64,000 bases of DNA, from assembly GCA_004556705.1 (NCBI GenBank), contig SFGA01000002.1, positions 12,938 to 76,937 of the forward strand. Direction: 5' to 3'. This DNA comes from Ruminococcus sp. (GTDB taxonomy: Bacteria > Bacillota > Clostridia > Oscillospirales > Acutalibacteraceae). The notes beneath the pieces are model-generated. The model saw only the letters and a list, made by a program, of their open reading frames with translations, had not been told where the DNA came from and searched no databases. The position numbers and the translations under genes were made by a program. This document shows, one piece after another, positions 18,344 through 40,949 of this stretch; within the stretch, counting starts at the first letter, position 1; every line of letters begins with the position of its first letter.

Positions 18344-19384
18344 ATGCTTACATATACCTATGTATCAAAGGGTAATTTTGAATTAAGGGAAAAACCGAAG
18401 CCCGTGCTTCTCAATGAGCGTGACGCAATTGTCAGGGTTACGCTTGCAAGTATTTGTTCAAGCGATTTACACATTAAGCACGGAAGCGTTCCCCGTGCCG
18501 TTCCGGGTATTACCGTAGGCCACGAAATGGTCGGAATTGTCGAAGAAATCGGAAGCGCCGTAACTAATGTAAAGGTCGGCGACAGAGTAACTGTAAACGT
18601 TAAAACCTTTTGCGGAGAGTGCTTTTTCTGCAAGCACGGCTACGTCAACAACTGCACGGACAAAAACGGCGGCTGGGCTCTCGGTTGCCGAATTGACGGA
18701 GGTCAGGCGGAATATGTGCGTGTCCCCTTTGCCGACCATGGATTAAATAAAATTCCCGATACCGTCAGCGACAGACAAGCTTTATTTGTCGGAGACGTGC
18801 TTGCGACAGGCTTTTGGGCTGCTCGCATTTCCGAAATAACCGAGGATGACACCGTGCTTATTATCGGCGCAGGTCCAACGGGATTTTGCACCCTGCTTTG
18901 CGTTATGCTTAAAAATCCAAAGCGTATAATCGTGTGTGAAAAGGACGAAAGCCGTATCAAGTTTATAAATGAGCATTACCCTGAGGTGCTTACGGTTTCA
19001 CCCGAAGGCTGTGCTGACTTTGTTCTTAAAAACAGCGATCACGGCGGCGCAGACAGAGTACTTGAGGTTGCAGGTGCAAGCTCAACCTTCCGTTTGGCTT
19101 GGGAATGTGCAAGACCGAATGCGATTGTAACGGTTGTGGCTCTTTATGACGAAGCGCAAACCTTACCGCTTCCCGATATGTACGGCAAAAACCTAATTTT
19201 CAAAACAGGCGGCGTTGACGGCTGCGACTGCGACGAAACCTTAGAGCTTATCGCACAGGGGAAAATCAACACAGAGCCGTTAATTACACACACCTATCCG
19301 CTTTCAAAAATCGAAGAAGCCTATGACATTTTCGAAAACAAAAAGGAAAATGTAATCAAGGTTGCGGTTGATTGCCGAAAATAA
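18344..19384 (+). CDS. Zinc-dependent alcohol dehydrogenase (MDR superfamily)
   Basis: Catalytic Zn ligands in ICSSDLH...GHEMVGIVEEIG. Structural Zn cluster FCGECFFCKHGYVNNC. Rossmann motif IIGAGPTG. Confidence 0.88.
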   Translation: MLTYTYVSKGNFELREKPKPVLLNERDAIVRVTLASICSSDLHIKHGSVPRAVPGITVGHEMVGIVEEIGSAVTNVKVGDRVTVNVKTFCGECFFCKHGYVNNCTDKNGGWALGCRIDGGQAEYVRVPFADHGLNKIPDTVSDRQALFVGDVLATGFWAARISEITEDDTVLIIGAGPTGFCTLLCVMLKNPKRIIVCEKDESRIKFINEHYPEVLTVSPEGCADFVLKNSDHGGADRVLEVAGASSTFRLAWECARPNAIVTVVALYDEAQTLPLPDMYGKNLIFKTGGVDGCDCDETLELIAQGKINTEPLITHTYPLSKIEEAYDIFENKKENVIKVAVDCRK

Positions 19385-19412: not shown

Positions 19413-20059
19413 ATGAAAAAAATCTTATTCGTCTGCTTGGCTGAGTGTTCATAAGGAAGTATTGGTTTCTCGCATAAAAATCCATTATGCTTTTGCCAAA
19501 AAGCCTCGCAAGGCGACAGCCTTGCATCATTTCTCTAATGCTAACGCATATCTGCGGGGTTTAACGAATTATTGCGCAAAAAGATGTTGTTTTGAAGCAA
19601 AACTTCCTTATGAACACTCAGCCTTATATTTGTCGTTCGCCGATGGCGGAATTTATACTTAAAGATATGGTTAAACGCAAGGGGCTTGAAAGCGAGTTCT
19701 TTATTTCATCAAGTGCAACAAGCGCCGAAGAAATTTGGAACGGCGTGGGAAATCCTGTTTATCCGCCTGCGAGAGCCGTGCTTGAAGCTCACTCGATAAG
19801 CCCCGACGGAAAGCATGCCGTTCAACTGACTGCGAGCGATTATAACAAATATGATTTGCTTATCGGTATGGACAGCGCAAATATAAGAAATATGAAGCGT
19901 ATTCTCCGTGGCGACAGCGACAATAAAATTCGCAAGCTTATGGAATATACGGGAAGCGGCGCAGATGTGTCCGACCCGTGGTACACAAGGGATTTTGAGC
20001 GTTGCTACAAGGATATTTACAAAGGCTGTGAAGCCTTGCTAAAAGCATTAACAGAATAA
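19413..20059 (+). pseudogene. Low-molecular-weight protein-tyrosine phosphatase, interrupted in the P-loop by a 185-bp insertion
   Basis: The 5' piece MKKILFVCL(AECS-stop) runs 19413-19454. The 3' piece YICRSPMAEFILKDM...SDPWY... runs from 19625 to stop 20059 in a different frame (listed ORF 19592..20059). Together they recreate an LMW-PTP except for the Gly-Asn of the C-X-G-N-X-C-R-S loop. Confidence 0.7.
19439..19623. mobile_element. 185-bp non-coding element with perfect 21-bp terminal inverted repeats (MITE-like)
   Basis: GGCTGAGTGTTCATAAGGAAG (19439-19459) is the exact reverse complement of CTTCCTTATGAACACTCAGCC (19603-19623). Internal hairpins occur at 19472-19490 and 19508-19525. No credible ORF and no recombinase nearby. 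No second copy was seen in this window. Confidence 0.5.
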
Positions 20060-20072
20060 AATACTCAACAAA

Positions 20073-20097
20073 AAACGCTGTGCAAAGCACAGCGTTT
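20073..20097. terminator. Bidirectional terminator between the PTP gene and serS
   Basis: Perfect 11-bp stem AAACGCTGTGC / GCACAGCGTTT with loop AAA. T-rich on both outgoing sides. Confidence 0.8.
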
Positions 20098-20112
20098 AAT
20101 TTTTATTTGCTC

Positions 20113-21402
20113 TTATTTGCTTTTCTTTTCGATAAGGCTCTTACCGCCCATATACATTCTAAGCGGCTCGGGAATTCTGACTGTTCCGTCCTCGTTAAGA
20201 TTGTTTTCAAGGTAAGCAATCAACATTCTCGGAGGCGCAACAACCGTGTTGTTAAGCGTGTGTGCAAAATAGTTGCCGTCCTTACCCTTAATTCTGATTC
20301 CGAGACGTCTTGCCTGTGCATCTCCGAGGTTTGAGCATGAGCCAACCTCAAAATACTTCTTCTGTCTGGGGCTCCAAGCCTCAACGTCAAGACTCTTAAC
20401 TTTGAGGTCTGCAAGGTCGCCCGAGCAGCATTCAAGAGTTCTTACCGGAATATCAAGGCTGCGGAAGAAATCAACCGTATTGTTCCAAAGCTTATCGTAC
20501 CACTCGTCGCTCTCCTCAGGCTTACATACAACAACCATTTCCTGCTTTTCGAATTGATGTATTCTGTAAACGCCTCTCTCCTCGATACCGTGTGCGCCGA
20601 CCTCCTTACGGAAGCACGGAGAATAAGAAGTAAGTGCTTTCGGAAGCTCTGCTTCGGGAATGATGCTATCAATAAATTTGCCTATCATTGAATGTTCGCT
20701 CGTGCCGATAAGATAGAGATCCTCGCCCTCAATCTTATACATCATATTTTCCATCTCTGCGAAGCTCATAACGCCCGTTACAACGTCGCTTCTTATCATA
20801 AACGGCGGAACATAATATGTAAAGCCTCTGTCAATCATAAAGTCTCTCGCATACGAGAGAATAGCCGAATGAAGTCTTGCAATATCGCCCGAAAGATAAT
20901 AGAAACCGTTACCGCTTGTCTTTCTTGCGGAATCAAGGTCGATACCGTCAAAAGACTCCATAATGTCAACATGATACGGAATTTCATAATCAGGCACAAC
21001 AGGCTCGCCGAATTTTTCAAGCTCAACATTTTCGCTGTCGTCCTTGCCTATCGGCACATCCTTACCGATAATATTCGGAATGACCATCATTCTCTTTTTG
21101 ATTTCAGCAGCAAGCTCCTGCTCCTTAACCTCAAGAGCTTCAAGTTCCTCGTTGATTTCTTTAACTTTTGCCTTTGCACTTTCAGCTTCATCTTTGAGGC
21201 CTTTGCCCATAAACATACCGATTTCCTTGCTGATACGGTTACGGTCGCCTCTCAATGCGTCGCCCTTTGTTTTTGACTCTCTGTATTCAAGGTCAAGCTT
21301 AATTACCTCGTCAACCAAAGGAAGCTTTTCGTCCTGAAACTTCTTTTTAATATTTTCCTTTACTGCGTCGGGATTTTCCCTTAAAAATTTAATATCAAGC
21401 AT
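20113..21402 (-). CDS. serS: Serine--tRNA ligase
   Basis: MLDIKFLRENPD, an N-terminal coiled-coil arm, and a class II core (TSEHSMIG, FRKEVGAHG, RIHQFEKQEMV, GSCSNLGDAQARRL). Confidence 0.96.
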   Translation of the reverse strand: MLDIKFLRENPDAVKENIKKKFQDEKLPLVDEVIKLDLEYRESKTKGDALRGDRNRISKEIGMFMGKGLKDEAESAKAKVKEINEELEALEVKEQELAAEIKKRMMVIPNIIGKDVPIGKDDSENVELEKFGEPVVPDYEIPYHVDIMESFDGIDLDSARKTSGNGFYYLSGDIARLHSAILSYARDFMIDRGFTYYVPPFMIRSDVVTGVMSFAEMENMMYKIEGEDLYLIGTSEHSMIGKFIDSIIPEAELPKALTSYSPCFRKEVGAHGIEERGVYRIHQFEKQEMVVVCKPEESDEWYDKLWNNTVDFFRSLDIPVRTLECCSGDLADLKVKSLDVEAWSPRQKKYFEVGSCSNLGDAQARRLGIRIKGKDGNYFAHTLNNTVVAPPRMLIAYLENNLNEDGTVRIPEPLRMYMGGKSLIEKKSK

Positions 21403-21433: not shown

Positions 21434-22297
21434 TTATTCAAGATTTTCAAACTGTTTTGAAAGCTTTTCAAGGTCTGATTTCGAAAAAAACTCAACCTCG
21501 AGAGTTCCGCTTCCGCCCTTTGAAACGAAAACCTTTACTTTTCTGCCAAGCATTTTTGAAAGTGCAATTTCGACCTCATCATAAAAGATGTCACGCTTCT
21601 TTTCACGTTTTTCGGGCGATTTTTTTGTTTTCTGTGCGCTCTTTGCAAGTCGCTCTACGTCACGAACGGAAATTCCGTCCTTAACAACAAGCTGTGCGAC
21701 TCTCGAAGCCTCTGCCGCATCCTCAAACGAAAGCAACGCCCTTGCGTGTCCCATTGAAATTTTGCCGTCTCTTACAAGATTTGAAATATCCTCGGGAAGA
21801 TTGAGCAATCTCAAGCTGTTTGTAACCGCCGTTCTCGATTTGCCGACTTTTTGAGCCGCTTCCTCCTGTGTAAATCCAAATGTGTCAATAAGAGTTTTTA
21901 TTCCCTGCGCTTCCTCGATTGCATTGAGATCCTCTCTGTGCAAATTTTCGATAAGAGCAAAAATGCTCTCCTCTTCATCCGTCATCTCACGGATTGTAAC
22001 GGGAACTTCGGTAACCCCCGCCATCCTTGCCGCACGGTATCTTCTCTCGCCTGCAACAAGACGATAACTGCCGTCCGCCATGGGTCTTACAAGCAACGGC
22101 TGTAAAACTCCGTGTTCTTTTATCGAAGCTGAAAGCTCTGCCAATGCCTGTTCTTCAAATATTTTTCTCGGCTGGTCACGGTTAGGCTCTATTTCGTTAA
22201 TTGAAAGTCTGACACTTTCGCCCGAAGTCGGTTCCATAGCGTTATCATAAATAAGAGCGCTCATACCCTTACCCAAGCCGCCTTTTTTAGCTGCCAT
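21434..22297 (-). CDS. spo0J: Chromosome partitioning protein ParB/Spo0J
   Basis: MAAKKGGLGKGMSALI, the CTP-binding box LVAGERRYRAARMAG, and the HTH QEEAAQKVGKSRTAVTNSLRLL. The start is set at ATG 22297 after AAGGAGG. The track start at 22372 was rejected. Confidence 0.93.
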   Translation of the reverse strand: MAAKKGGLGKGMSALIYDNAMEPTSGESVRLSINEIEPNRDQPRKIFEEQALAELSASIKEHGVLQPLLVRPMADGSYRLVAGERRYRAARMAGVTEVPVTIREMTDEEESIFALIENLHREDLNAIEEAQGIKTLIDTFGFTQEEAAQKVGKSRTAVTNSLRLLNLPEDISNLVRDGKISMGHARALLSFEDAAEASRVAQLVVKDGISVRDVERLAKSAQKTKKSPEKREKKRDIFYDEVEIALSKMLGRKVKVFVSKGGSGTLEVEFFSKSDLEKLSKQFENLE

Positions 22298-22310
22298 ATA
22301 TTTATCCTCC

Positions 22311-22901
22311 TTATGCCTGAGCGTATGCTTTAACTTCTTCCGGATTTGACTTTGCAAAATAATCCTCGTCAAAGAATGATAGTGCGTTTTTACCGTTATT
22401 TGTAGTGGTCACAATAATATATACTCCGCCTTGATACCAAACGTAATTTGTCTTGTTCGTTTCATAGGTCACTACTGCGTGCTTTCCGAATTTTTTATCA
22501 TAAGACGAAATTGCGTCATTGAGAACAAAGCCTGTTTTTTCAGTTGCTGCGTACTGTATCTCACAAAGGCGCATATTGTAGTCATATATAAAATACACTA
22601 CGCTCTCGACGTCTTCGGAAACAAACGGCAATCCGCTCTTTTTTATTGCAAAAAACGGAACTGCACTGTCATTGACTTGAATTTCAGTCTTAACGCCTAA
22701 AGCATTTTGCGTTTCTTCAATGCTCATACCCATTTTTGCACCTAAAACATCTAAATTGCTGTATTTGTATGTAACGGCCTCCGTAGTCTTCCTTTCGGTG
22801 GTAATTATCGGCGCAGGCTCAAACTCCTCGGCTTTTCCGCATGAGGTAAGTAATACGGAAGCTAAAACCAATAAAATTGCTATCGGCGTTATATTTTTCA
22901 T
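22311..22901 (-). CDS. Lipoprotein of unknown function inserted between soj and spo0J
   Basis: ATG 22901 follows GGAGG. The signal peptide with lipobox reads MKNITPIAILLVLASVLLTSC. I recognise no family. There are 14-nt gaps to the soj stop and the spo0J start, and each gap is filled by an RBS. Confidence 0.7.
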   Translation of the reverse strand: MKNITPIAILLVLASVLLTSCGKAEEFEPAPIITTERKTTEAVTYKYSNLDVLGAKMGMSIEETQNALGVKTEIQVNDSAVPFFAIKKSGLPFVSEDVESVVYFIYDYNMRLCEIQYAATEKTGFVLNDAISSYDKKFGKHAVVTYETNKTNYVWYQGGVYIIVTTTNNGKNALSFFDEDYFAKSNPEEVKAYAQA

Positions 22902-36360: not shown

Positions 36361-38358
<1,998 letters not shown>

Positions 38359-38375
38359 GATAAAGAGGTAAGACG

Positions 38376-40949
38376 ATGGCTAAAAATAAAACTTCAAGCG
38401 CAAGTCATAATCATAATTTAGGAGATTATGTTCCGCTTGAGCAACAGAACATTATAAACAAGGAAATAAATCAGGAAATGAGAAATTCATTCCTTGATTA
38501 CTCTATGTCGGTTATCACCTCCCGTGCGCTTCCCGACGTCAGAGACGGCTTAAAGCCCGTTCACAGAAGAATTCTCTACACAATGTACGAAAAGCATTTG
38601 TATCCGAATGTGGCATACCGTAAGTGTGCCGATACAGTCGGTGCCGTATTGGGTTCTTACCATCCTCACGGTGATGCTTCGGTTTACGATGCAATGGTTA
38701 GACTTGCGCAGGATTTCTCAATGAGATACACTCTTGTTGACGGTCACGGTAACTTCGGTTCAATCGACGGCGACCCCCCTGCTGCATACCGTTATACAGA
38801 GTCGAGAATGAGCAAAATCGCTCTCGAGCTTTTGACTGATATTGATAAAAAGACCGTAGACTATGTTTCAAACTACGACGACAGACTTAAAGAGCCCACA
38901 GTTCTTCCGTCAAGATACCCGAACCTGCTTGTAAACGGATCAACGGGTATTGCCGTAGGTATGGCAACAAATATTCCCCCTCATAATCTCGGTGAGGTTA
39001 TCGACGGCGTATGCTGTGTAATTGACAATCCCGACGCTTCGTTGGAAGAAATTATGGAGCATATCAAGGGACCGGATTTCCCGACAGAGGGAATTATTAT
39101 GGGCAGAGCCGGTATTCGTGCGGCTTATGCTACGGGCAGAGGTAAAATTACTCTTCGTGGCCGTGCCGAAATTATTGAAAACGAAAAGAACGGCAAATTT
39201 CAAATCGTAATTACCGAGCTTCCCTATCAGGTTAATAAGGCAAGACTTATCGAGTCAATCGCAGAGCTTCATAAGGATAAAAAAATCGAGGGAATGTCGG
39301 GCATTAACGACTATTCTTCAAAGCGTGGCGGCGGTATCAGAATTGTTATCGACCTCAAGAGAGATGCAAACCCGCAGGTTATCTTAAATCAGCTGTATCA
39401 GATGACGCAGCTTCAGATTTCCTACGGTATCATTCAGCTCGCCCTTGTTGACGGCGTTCCGAAGATTCTTACACTTAAAGAAATTATTGAGCAGTATATC
39501 AAATTCCAATGTGAAATAATCACAAGAAGAACGGAGTTTGACCTTAAAAAAGCGCAGGACAGAGAGCACATTCTTGCAGGTCTTGAAAGAGCCGTTGATA
39601 TTGTTGACGATATTATTGCTACAATTCGTGCTTGTAAGGGCGGTCAGGCGGAGGCAAAGCAGGCTATTATGGATAAGTTTGACTTTGACGAGCCGCAGGC
39701 AGATGCGATAGTTGCGTTCAGACTCGGTCAGCTGGCAGGTCTTGAAATTCAGAAAATTATTTCCGAGAGAAAAGAGCTTCAGGAAAAAATTAAGTCCTTG
39801 CTTGAGCTTTTGTCTTCTGAAACAAATATCAAAAATACCGTTAAAACAGAACTTCAGGTTATTGCCGAAAAATTCAGCGATGAGAGAAGAACAGAGATTT
39901 CCAACGTTGCGGGCGAAGTTGATATTGAGGACCTTATTCCCGAAGAGGACTGCGTTTATACGCTTACAAATATGGGATATATTAAACGTCAGCCTGTTGA
40001 CACTTATCAGAGTCAGCGCAGAGGCGGCAAGGGCATTAAGGGTATGACAAGACGTGAAGAGGATTACGCAAAGACAATGTTTACCTGCTCTTCACACGAC
40101 TATATTATGTTCTTTACCTCGCTCGGTAAGGCTTACAGGCTCAAGGGCTATGAAATTCCCGAGGGCAGCCGTTCAAGTAAGGGTATGAATGTTGTTAATA
40201 TTCTTCCCATTACTTCGGACGAGAAAATTACATCAATGATAAGAGTACCGAACTTCAGCGACGAGGATAATTTCTATCTCTGTATGCTTACAAAACAGGG
40301 CATTATTAAGCGTACTCCGCTTAACGCATATAAGAATATTCGTAAGTCGGGTATTCTTGCAATAAATCTTGACGAGGGCGACGAGCTTGATTGGGTTGCG
40401 CTCACAGATGGTACGAAGAAGATAATGGTAGCAACAAAGAAGGGCTTTGCTATTACATTTGAGGAAAATGATGCAAGGGTAATCGGCAGAACTGCCCGTG
40501 GTGTTAAGGCTATCTCACTTCGTGACGGCGACGAGGTTACGGGTATGTGTATCCTCGAAGAGGGCAAAAAGGTTCTTACAATTTCAGAAACAGGCTTCGG
40601 CAGACGTTCCGAAATTGACAATTACCGTATTCAGTCGAGAGGCGGTAAGGGACTTACCAACTATAAGACCGAGCTTTACGGAGATGTTGCGGCAGTTTCA
40701 ATGATTGATGACGACGAGGATATTATCATAATTTCTTCGGACGGAATTATCATAAGAATAAAGGCATCCGATATAAGTACCTTCTCAAGAACATCAAAGG
40801 GTGTTCGTGTTATGAAGGTATCCGAGGGCGAAAAGGTTTCGGCTTTCTCGATTACCGCACATGATGCAGAAGAAAAGACCGATGAGCTTGAAATAAGCGA
40901 AGAAGATGCCGAGGGTAATGAAACAGAAGTGTCCGAAACGGAGGAATAA
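38376..40949 (+). CDS. gyrA: DNA gyrase subunit A
   Basis: [27 protein letters not shown], the [21 protein letters not shown], active-site AAYRYTE, a C-terminal beta-pinwheel with GyrA box QSQRRGGKG, and an acidic tail. Confidence 0.98.

Follow-up and report, generated by a model that had tools for sequence, protein, structure and literature searches.

Small non-coding repeats of the MITE type are known from several bacteria and include the Correia elements of Neisseria, the pneumococcal RUP, BOX and SPRITE repeats, and MITEAba12 of Acinetobacter (PMC10969869). The 277-bp repeat family considered here, a shortened copy of which splits a gene for an LMW protein-tyrosine phosphatase (LMW-PTP), resembles these MITEs in being small, non-coding, and multi-copy and in having terminal inverted repeats and a very short flanking repeat. 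Like them, it is mostly intergenic with an occasional strain-specific gene disruption, its transcripts would fold into stable hairpins, and it has internal-deletion variants. Unlike them, it comes with no parent insertion sequence bearing the same ends in the collections searched, its 2-nt flank is polar (TT, almost never AA), and its length is unusually constant, with internal helices that carry compensatory changes.

The palindromic elements of Rickettsia that lie inside open reading frames preserve the frame, and the proteins tolerate them as additional peptide segments (PMC10969869). The phosphatase insertion also places a palindromic repeat within an open reading frame, but it breaks the frame and removes codons of the catalytic loop. 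Genes halved by inserted DNA are further represented by the skin element of sigK and the nifD and fdxN elements of Anabaena, which are kilobase-scale, carry their own recombinase, and restore the gene by precise excision. The phosphatase gene is likewise halved, but its restoration is impossible, and the inserted element contains no gene.

With respect to where the family is found, IS1397, ISKpn1, and the REPIN/RAYT systems are tied to extragenic palindromes. The IS110-family element ISPpu9 inserts in REP sequences (PMC12288879). The 277-bp family has the same niche, a palindromic intergenic hairpin, and shares with IS110-type elements a short core common to element and target and a fixed orientation. 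It differs from these palindrome-homing elements in that its targets share only TT, its terminal repeats are long and perfect, and no recombinase or RAYT gene was found linked to it. IS607 serine transposons exchange strands at a shared non-palindromic dinucleotide, GG, and have no terminal inverted repeats (PMC6188088). Here too insertion is at a dinucleotide that the element end also carries, there appears to be no true duplication, and further target specificity is minimal; an IS607-like exchange would account for the polarity of the TT flanks as well as for the 2 bp gained. The 277-bp family has terminal inverted repeats and uses TT, not GG; this likeness is a mechanistic lead only.

The interrupted phosphatase gene and the 185-bp unit

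In the window, by which we mean the whole 64,000-nucleotide stretch that was analyzed, the frame that opens at ATG 19413 reads MKKILFVCLAECS and stops at TAA 19452. Its beginning (19413..19436, plus strand) is an N-terminal LMW-PTP remnant, MKKILFVC, which ends at the nucleophilic Cys codon TGC and corresponds to residues 1–8 of P0001, the intact ortholog encoded at the syntenic locus L040, with one synonymous DNA difference (GTC vs GTT). The C-terminal 143 codons, running from ICRSPMAEF through SDPWY to the stop, occupy 19626..20059 of the plus strand in a frame that is still open; read from 19625, this frame begins YICRSPMAEF and ends with the stop at 20057–20059. The downstream half is 96% identical to P0001 and matches Pfam LMWPc (E 4e-26) over profile positions 9–144, with the first 8 positions absent. 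By this profile nothing has been lost beyond the first strand and the beginning of the P-loop, and the rest of the fold is present, including the Asp-Pro general-acid loop with its SDPWY motif. What the C-terminal half does not have is the nucleophilic Cys and the Gly-Asn of the P-loop. Intact orthologs have the P-loop VCHGNICRS, whereas no contiguous C-X5-R-(S/T) exists in the window: the Cys codon (19434–19436) and the Arg codon (19634–19636) are 197 nt apart and in different frames. The window contains no paralog of the gene.

A zinc-dependent alcohol dehydrogenase gene (18344..19384, plus strand) ends 28 nt before the phosphatase start, an order also seen in L040–L044 and L018, and a convergent seryl-tRNA synthetase gene (20113..21402, minus strand) follows the phosphatase. 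The phosphatase has no gene after it on its own strand, so the insertion has no downstream gene on which to exert a polar effect. A bidirectional terminator hairpin, AAAAAACGCTGTGCAAAGCACAGCGTTTAATTTTT, separates the phosphatase from serS at 20065–20100, which is the repeat's usual kind of site and is empty here. The genes parB, gyrB, and gyrA are found near serS (21434–22372 and 36394–40949), and given this proximity of parB, gyrB, gyrA, and serS the window may be close to the origin of chromosome replication. An inverted repeat of 28 nt (37468/39197) was considered as an insertion sequence and rejected as a chance match, its ends being inside gyrB and gyrA.

The DNA between the two gene halves is a MITE-like, non-coding unit of 185 bp (19439..19623, plus strand), and comparison with full copies identifies it as an internal-deletion derivative of the 277-bp family. 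It is 100% identical to nt 1–97 plus 190–277 of a 277-bp copy, with nt 98–189 gone. When it is aligned with the full copies that L217 and L018 carry at this site, the junction of the 92-bp deletion falls at 19535..19536 (plus strand); in the Y-shaped fold described below, arm 1 loses its 3' half and arm 2 its 5' half. The unit is flanked by TT on the left (19437..19438, plus strand), a dinucleotide absent from the empty site, and by TT on the right (19624..19625, plus strand). Its left terminal inverted repeat (19439..19467, plus strand) is perfect over 21 nt and 93% matched over 29 nt, and its right terminal inverted repeat (19595..19623, plus strand) holds an outward-facing ATG at 19610, in frame with the downstream half. 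The sequence GGCTGAGTGTTCATAAGGAAG (19439–19459) has its exact reverse complement at 19603–19623, giving 2 matches against 0.00 expected from 100 shuffles. Internal hairpins are present at 19472–19490 and 19508–19525, and the 203-nt stretch is predicted to fold far better than shuffles (z about −7.8 to −7.9, similar on either strand).

Open reading frames in the element, in both its 185- and 277-bp forms, are short and non-conserved, with no transposase among them. Promoter and terminator scans of the element gave weak consensus matches only, and Rfam covariance models applied to both forms at E up to 10 gave chance matches only, with no intron or ribozyme family. The window contains no second copy of the unit. 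The earlier note, written from the window alone, had reported the split LMW-PTP, the 185-bp unit with 21/21 inverted repeats, the internal hairpins, and the frame positions, and every one of these sequence statements is borne out. What is new is that the 185-bp unit is a deleted 277-bp copy and that the insertion removed target bases.

The 92-bp deletion is seen in no other assembly, and we regard it as improbable, though deserving of some weight, that the 185-bp form (not the insertion) is an assembly artefact and that the strain really has a 277-bp copy, that is, GGCTTCGGCATAAAAG beside the phosphatase flanks. Three loci with a C-terminal half identical to that of the window (L001, L002, and L217) carry 277 bp, and assemblies are often chimeric at the repeat, as seen from left flanks that belong to spoIIID, rnfB, and OTCase loci and from a 206-bp variant. 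However, there is no direct repeat at the deletion junction for an assembler to collapse, and shortened copies at other sites (62, 108, and ~232–255 bp) indicate that internal deletions are a real property of the family. On the account that we favor, the inserted copy in the window's strain lost its 92 internal bp at some later time, which left the 185-bp unit.

Intact and interrupted alleles

The C-terminal half has its closest homologs among full-length proteins of 154 aa that begin MKKILFVCHGNICRSPMAEF, and near-identical strains carry the intact gene, MKKILFVCHGNICRSP. One such locus, L040, is 97–98% identical to the window at the nucleotide level and has the same gene order: amylase (an alpha-amylase), DUF1836, YbjQ, alcohol dehydrogenase, phosphatase, serS, and parB, with serS and parB convergent. 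Five more loci (L041–L045) encode an intact MKKI(L/M)FVCHGNICRSP and are further examples of the empty site. The empty site that the earlier note had suggested seeking in close relatives is thus found in L040 and in L041–L045. In some intact alleles (L041–L044, ~2350–2500; proteins P0127/P0134), there is ~120 nt of extra sequence between the alcohol dehydrogenase gene and the phosphatase start, which leads gene callers to extend the phosphatase to 188 aa (MSVVSEKTV...).

Comparison of the two states of the site defines the junction. The empty site reads ...TTCGT(T/C)TG(C/T) CACGGCA ATATTTGTCGT..., and the occupied site reads ...TTCGTCTGC TT-element-TT ATATTTGTCGT...; viewed from the Cys codon, the empty sequence TGC-CACGGCA-ATATTTGT stands against the occupied sequence TGC-TT-element-TT-ATATTTGT. 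The 7 nt CACGGCA, which comprise parts of the His, Gly, and Asn codons, are therefore replaced by TT-element-TT. This loss explains an observation of the earlier note, that neither of two trial deletions of the unit restores Gly-Asn. The insertion at the phosphatase site was not clean, in that the empty site is without TT and 7 nt are lost, and an extra step must be assumed. This step could have been recombination of an aberrant kind, capture of the element at a break, or a microdeletion that came later. The junction is best seen as the product of an aberrant event at the small palindrome TGC-CACG-GCA, with TT brought by the element.

We have considerable confidence in an account in which a mobile repeat inserted into this gene and created a null allele. 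In this account a non-autonomous 277-bp repeat, with terminal inverted repeats of 21–29 nt and no gene, would have inserted once, in an ancestor of the present Ca. Fimenecus lineage, into codons 9–11 of the LMW-PTP gene. The insertion would part the nucleophilic Cys from the Arg of CX5R and shift the frame, and the resulting null allele would now exist beside the intact allele in the gut population, its flanks reshuffled by homologous recombination and its remaining open frame slowly gathering damaging replacements. Disruption of a gene by a MITE-like repeat is an ordinary knock-out, a known kind of event (PMC10969869). Pseudogenization by a MITE-like element was one of three readings offered in the earlier note, and it gains support from the multi-copy family and from the empty sites in syntenic close relatives.

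The interrupted alleles show signs of decay. The replacement R74H (GKHAVQL) is found in every interrupted allele of the protein collection and in none of 140 intact homologs (0/140), which mostly have Arg there. Each interrupted haplotype has 2–3 residues unseen in the 140 intact homologs, against an average of 0.39 for close intact sequences; these unprecedented residues are R74H plus T44A, N53K, L88S, or R113C, and several fall at columns that are 97–99% conserved. The window allele itself carries R74H and T44A, neither of which occurs in the 140 intact homologs. Two interrupted forms have also lost the last codon. Gene callers report the interrupted alleles as proteins of 138, 143, 148, or 149 aa, and truncated forms of the protein are found in at least 111 contig records in total. 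These observations point to a decaying null allele that is widespread.

The flanks of the interrupted alleles tell of exchange with intact ones. Between the window and L018, the element is identical (185/185), whereas the flanks differ by 4–6%, and the left-flank haplotypes of the two, ATCTTA and ATAATG, respectively, are each also found in intact alleles. We read this divergence as probable recombination importing DNA from diverged strains up to the heterology, with mosaicism judged from SNP patterns. The pN/pS between the interrupted haplotypes of the window and L018 is 0.17, no higher than between intact alleles, and we attribute this low value to the import of flanks from intact alleles. 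The mosaic flanks make pN/pS uninformative as a pseudogene test, and it was set aside; relaxed constraint is better indicated by the number of unprecedented residues.

The open downstream frame could be taken to mean that the C-terminal half is made from ATG 19610 (MNTQPYICRSP...) as a Cys-less pseudo-phosphatase with a new role, a domesticated protein of the kind the earlier note had also envisaged. In favor of such a product, its ATG lies in frame, all interrupted haplotypes keep the 143 codons open, and pN/pS between interrupted haplotypes is 0.17. However, an in-frame ATG has a 1-in-3 chance of arising, a low pN/pS is expected if the flanks come from intact alleles, and there is no Shine-Dalgarno sequence upstream of ATG 19610, TTG 19592, or ATG 19643. 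Together with the 2–3 unseen residues per interrupted allele, some at near-invariant positions, and the last codon lost in two forms, these points make a domesticated protein very unlikely. The product from ATG 19610 is found on two metagenome contigs, both with the 277-bp element.

Several features tie the interrupted alleles to one another. L018, the species-representative genome of a Ca. Fimenecus sp., has a full 277-bp copy at the identical junction. A private G in CCGCGGAT is present in 8/8 full copies that adjoin the phosphatase C-terminal half and in 0/83 other copies. These alleles share an abnormal junction, the private SNP, and the linked R74H, a combination that indicates one insertion event. 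The copy in L018 also bears on the length of the unit: 185 is 2 mod 3, which the earlier note took to be exactly the offset between the gene halves, but the 277-bp copy (1 mod 3) sits at the same junction, and its exact removal gives the same fusion, so the length is uninformative. Were the phosphatase site a hot spot hit independently in different lineages, an identical element between flanks 4–6% apart, with ATCTTA or ATAATG on the left as in intact alleles, would fit. But independent events would not yield all three of the features that the window and L018 share, the junction with its 7-nt loss, the private G, and the linked R74H, and we consider such repeated targeting highly improbable.

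Least credible, to the point that we give it almost no weight, is removal of the element as an intervening sequence, by a DNA recombinase or by RNA splicing, to yield a working phosphatase: its long terminal stem would bring the gene halves together and exact removal of the repeat keeps the frame (VCFYICRS), but CACGGCA is absent from the genome, so that no excision or splicing of any length rebuilds a C-X5-R loop with Gly-Asn (every deletion gives CX4R or a loop without Gly-Asn), neither the 185- nor the 277-bp form matches an Rfam intron or ribozyme at E up to 10, the element has no recombinase gene, the repeat is also present at ~40 intergenic sites that need no restoration, and the interrupted alleles gain replacements at near-invariant residues. 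This second reading of the earlier note is therefore excluded on sequence grounds, and insertion of a mobile repeat with formation of a null allele is the account we carry forward.

Copies, fold, and movement of the 277-bp family

A copy count, which the earlier note had proposed, was made by scanning for the 21-mer and for a 33-nt end. It gives 79 full copies, nearly all of 275–277 bp and 77–100% identical; they occupy 41 distinct sites in Ca. Fimenecus and in related Clostridia of the human gut. The exact 21-nt end is found at 37 loci in 9 assemblies from a set of 185,579 genomes with one genome per GTDB species; the hosts are Ca. Fimenecus sp., uncultured Eubacteriales, Clostridiales, and Ruminococcaceae, and a few bins otherwise named. 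The 33-nt left end adds 71 further metagenome loci, from the human gut wherever record names state the source. The element ends are GGCTGAGTGTTCATAAGG-like, and the left 33 nt are invariant in 24/24 aligned copies, with variation in the right repeat in 14/24. Shortened copies of 62, 108, 206, and ~232–255 bp are found elsewhere. Small size, terminal inverted repeats, many non-orthologous sites, occupied and empty alleles, and no transposase ORF are all features of the family that are typical of MITEs. Many contigs break off inside the repeat, as expected of a multi-copy element.

An autonomous insertion sequence with the same ends was not found in the 185,579 species genomes, the metagenome scan, ~1 Mb of loci (≤4 mismatches), or plasmid and phage collections, and the ~1 Mb of loci held no transposase ORF or long partner element. 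Within this ~1 Mb, inverted end pairs 300–6000 bp apart with ≤4 mismatches number five, and ~9 single matches are expected by chance. The two kinds of pair inspected, in L004 and L052, enclose ordinary genes and were rejected as autonomous partners. Truncated copies in L003 and L082 were rejected as transposase-bearing elements, as they run into unrelated DNA. A scan of viral contigs (IMG/VR) with a 14-nt end gave 97 chance matches and no family member, and the plasmid collection held no copy. Three INPHARED records (MT836023.1, MT835515.1, and MT836997.1), unannotated "Bacteriophage sp." contigs from human feces, have copies that are 80–93% identical; the three contigs may be pieces of bacterial DNA. 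Neither Rfam, nor the plasmid and phage collections, nor the literature searched yielded a description of the family, and by these sources it looks undescribed. We infer mobility in trans from the distribution of the copies only.

Four loci (L002, L214, L215, and L216) have the phosphatase C-terminal half joined through the repeat to unrelated left flanks from the spoIIID, rnfB, and ornithine carbamoyltransferase loci, and the copy in L215 is a 206-bp hybrid. The true spoIIID site, with its own copy, is seen in L055. These joins reflect either chimeric assembly brought about by the repeat or genuine recombination from one copy to another.

The full copy has a predicted folding energy of −124 kcal/mol compared with −59 for shuffles (z −13.8), and the predicted structure is Y-shaped, with a terminal stem of 22–26 bp and two long arms. 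In the covariation check that the earlier note had recommended, an alignment of 24 copies, 98.8% of cells pair, compared with ~45% in slid controls, and compensatory changes are seen at five pairs (58:100, 167:232, 182:216, 183:215, and 187:211). As the aligned copies share ancestry and are themselves the source of the structure, this covariation is supportive but not conclusive. In the predicted structure, the stem of the host terminator goes on pairing on both sides of the element and is coaxial with the stem of the terminal repeats, and this retention of the host stem may be the reason that terminator sites are tolerated.

The family occupies a distinct niche. At 23/41 sites the junction is in the loop of a clear hairpin, and 19/23 of these have an adjacent T-run, A-run, or both (T-run only, 4; A-run only, 3; both, 12; neither, 4). 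Such sites look like intrinsic, often bidirectional terminators, typically between convergent genes. The suggestion that the element is co-oriented with the terminators was withdrawn, as the split between T-runs and A-runs shows no direction bias, and a replication-strand bias judged by local GC skew is not significant (22:15).

The flanks are polar when read relative to the interior of the element, with TT just past the right end (+1,+2) in 39/41 sites, TT just ahead of the left end (−2,−1) in 32/41, and AA..AA at one site. This last site, a single orthologous site represented by L017, L051, L084, L100, and L106, may reflect inversion of the interior by recombination between the terminal repeats. 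A clean pair of occupied and empty sites, L006 and L037, shows that gtgaTTTTacg becomes gtgaTT-element-TTTTacg, a net gain of exactly TT. When one TT is taken out, the loops of occupied hairpins shrink to an ordinary 4 nt, for example TTTg, aTTa, and TTTa. One TT thus appears to derive from the target, and one effectively travels with the element. Symmetric DDE duplication of a TT/AA target would give TT and AA at equal frequency, which is not seen, and the polar flanks therefore argue against an ordinary DDE duplication. The polar TT and the 4-nt loops left after removal of one TT mean that the same dinucleotide is found at the element end and in the target, in fixed orientation. Targets share no sequence beyond TT, and target half-sites resemble the element ends no more closely than control offsets do. 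No recombinase gene was found linked to the copies.

Two further kinds of junction were observed. At L037:5440–5480, the ortholog of the occupied site L006:6609, the terminator loop contains GGCTGA-ACACTCAGC, in which a TGA microhomology links the outermost bases of the two terminal repeats and which looks like the remnant of a copy with a deleted interior. At L076:7226, L078:5773, and L091:5096, TT, the 9-nt palindrome GGCTGAGCC, and a further TT come directly after the right end of a full copy; this arrangement, CTCAGCC-TT-GGCTGAGCC, is a head-to-tail junction or remnant with a collapsed second copy.

How the family moves can be proposed tentatively from these flanks. It is possible, though we would put it below an even chance, that movement occurs by exchange at a TT core, in the manner of a serine recombinase or an IS110-type element, or by single-strand insertion 3' of TT, either of which would fit the junctions better than DDE duplication. 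The TT core would be carried by the element, and the enzyme would act in trans. A fuller version, to which we give slightly less credence still, is that the family is a non-autonomous element and not a decayed DDE transposon, with a serine- or IS110-type recombinase or an HUH enzyme acting in trans to exchange TT in the loops of terminator hairpins, which would be recognized as single-stranded or dyad-symmetric DNA; the Y-shaped fold would be required for this movement or would function as 3' UTR RNA. Should TT exchange prove correct, the phosphatase junction would be the scar of a mis-targeted exchange at TGC-CACG-GCA.

Consequences for the gut population and the repeat family

The locus provides a natural comparison between strains of one gut species with and without LMW-PTP, and it explains the "phosphatase" calls of 138, 143, 148, and 149 aa at this locus in public MAGs. 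Frequent mis-joining of contigs at the 277-bp repeat is also apparent here. The family itself is a compact test case: it is strongly structured, it is found mainly in terminator loops, and its strand-specific TT misfits the usual picture of cut-and-paste movement. Its polar TT, hairpin-loop niche, and conserved fold are worth following, and the enzyme, if found, could reveal a recombination system in gut Clostridia that targets hairpin loops.
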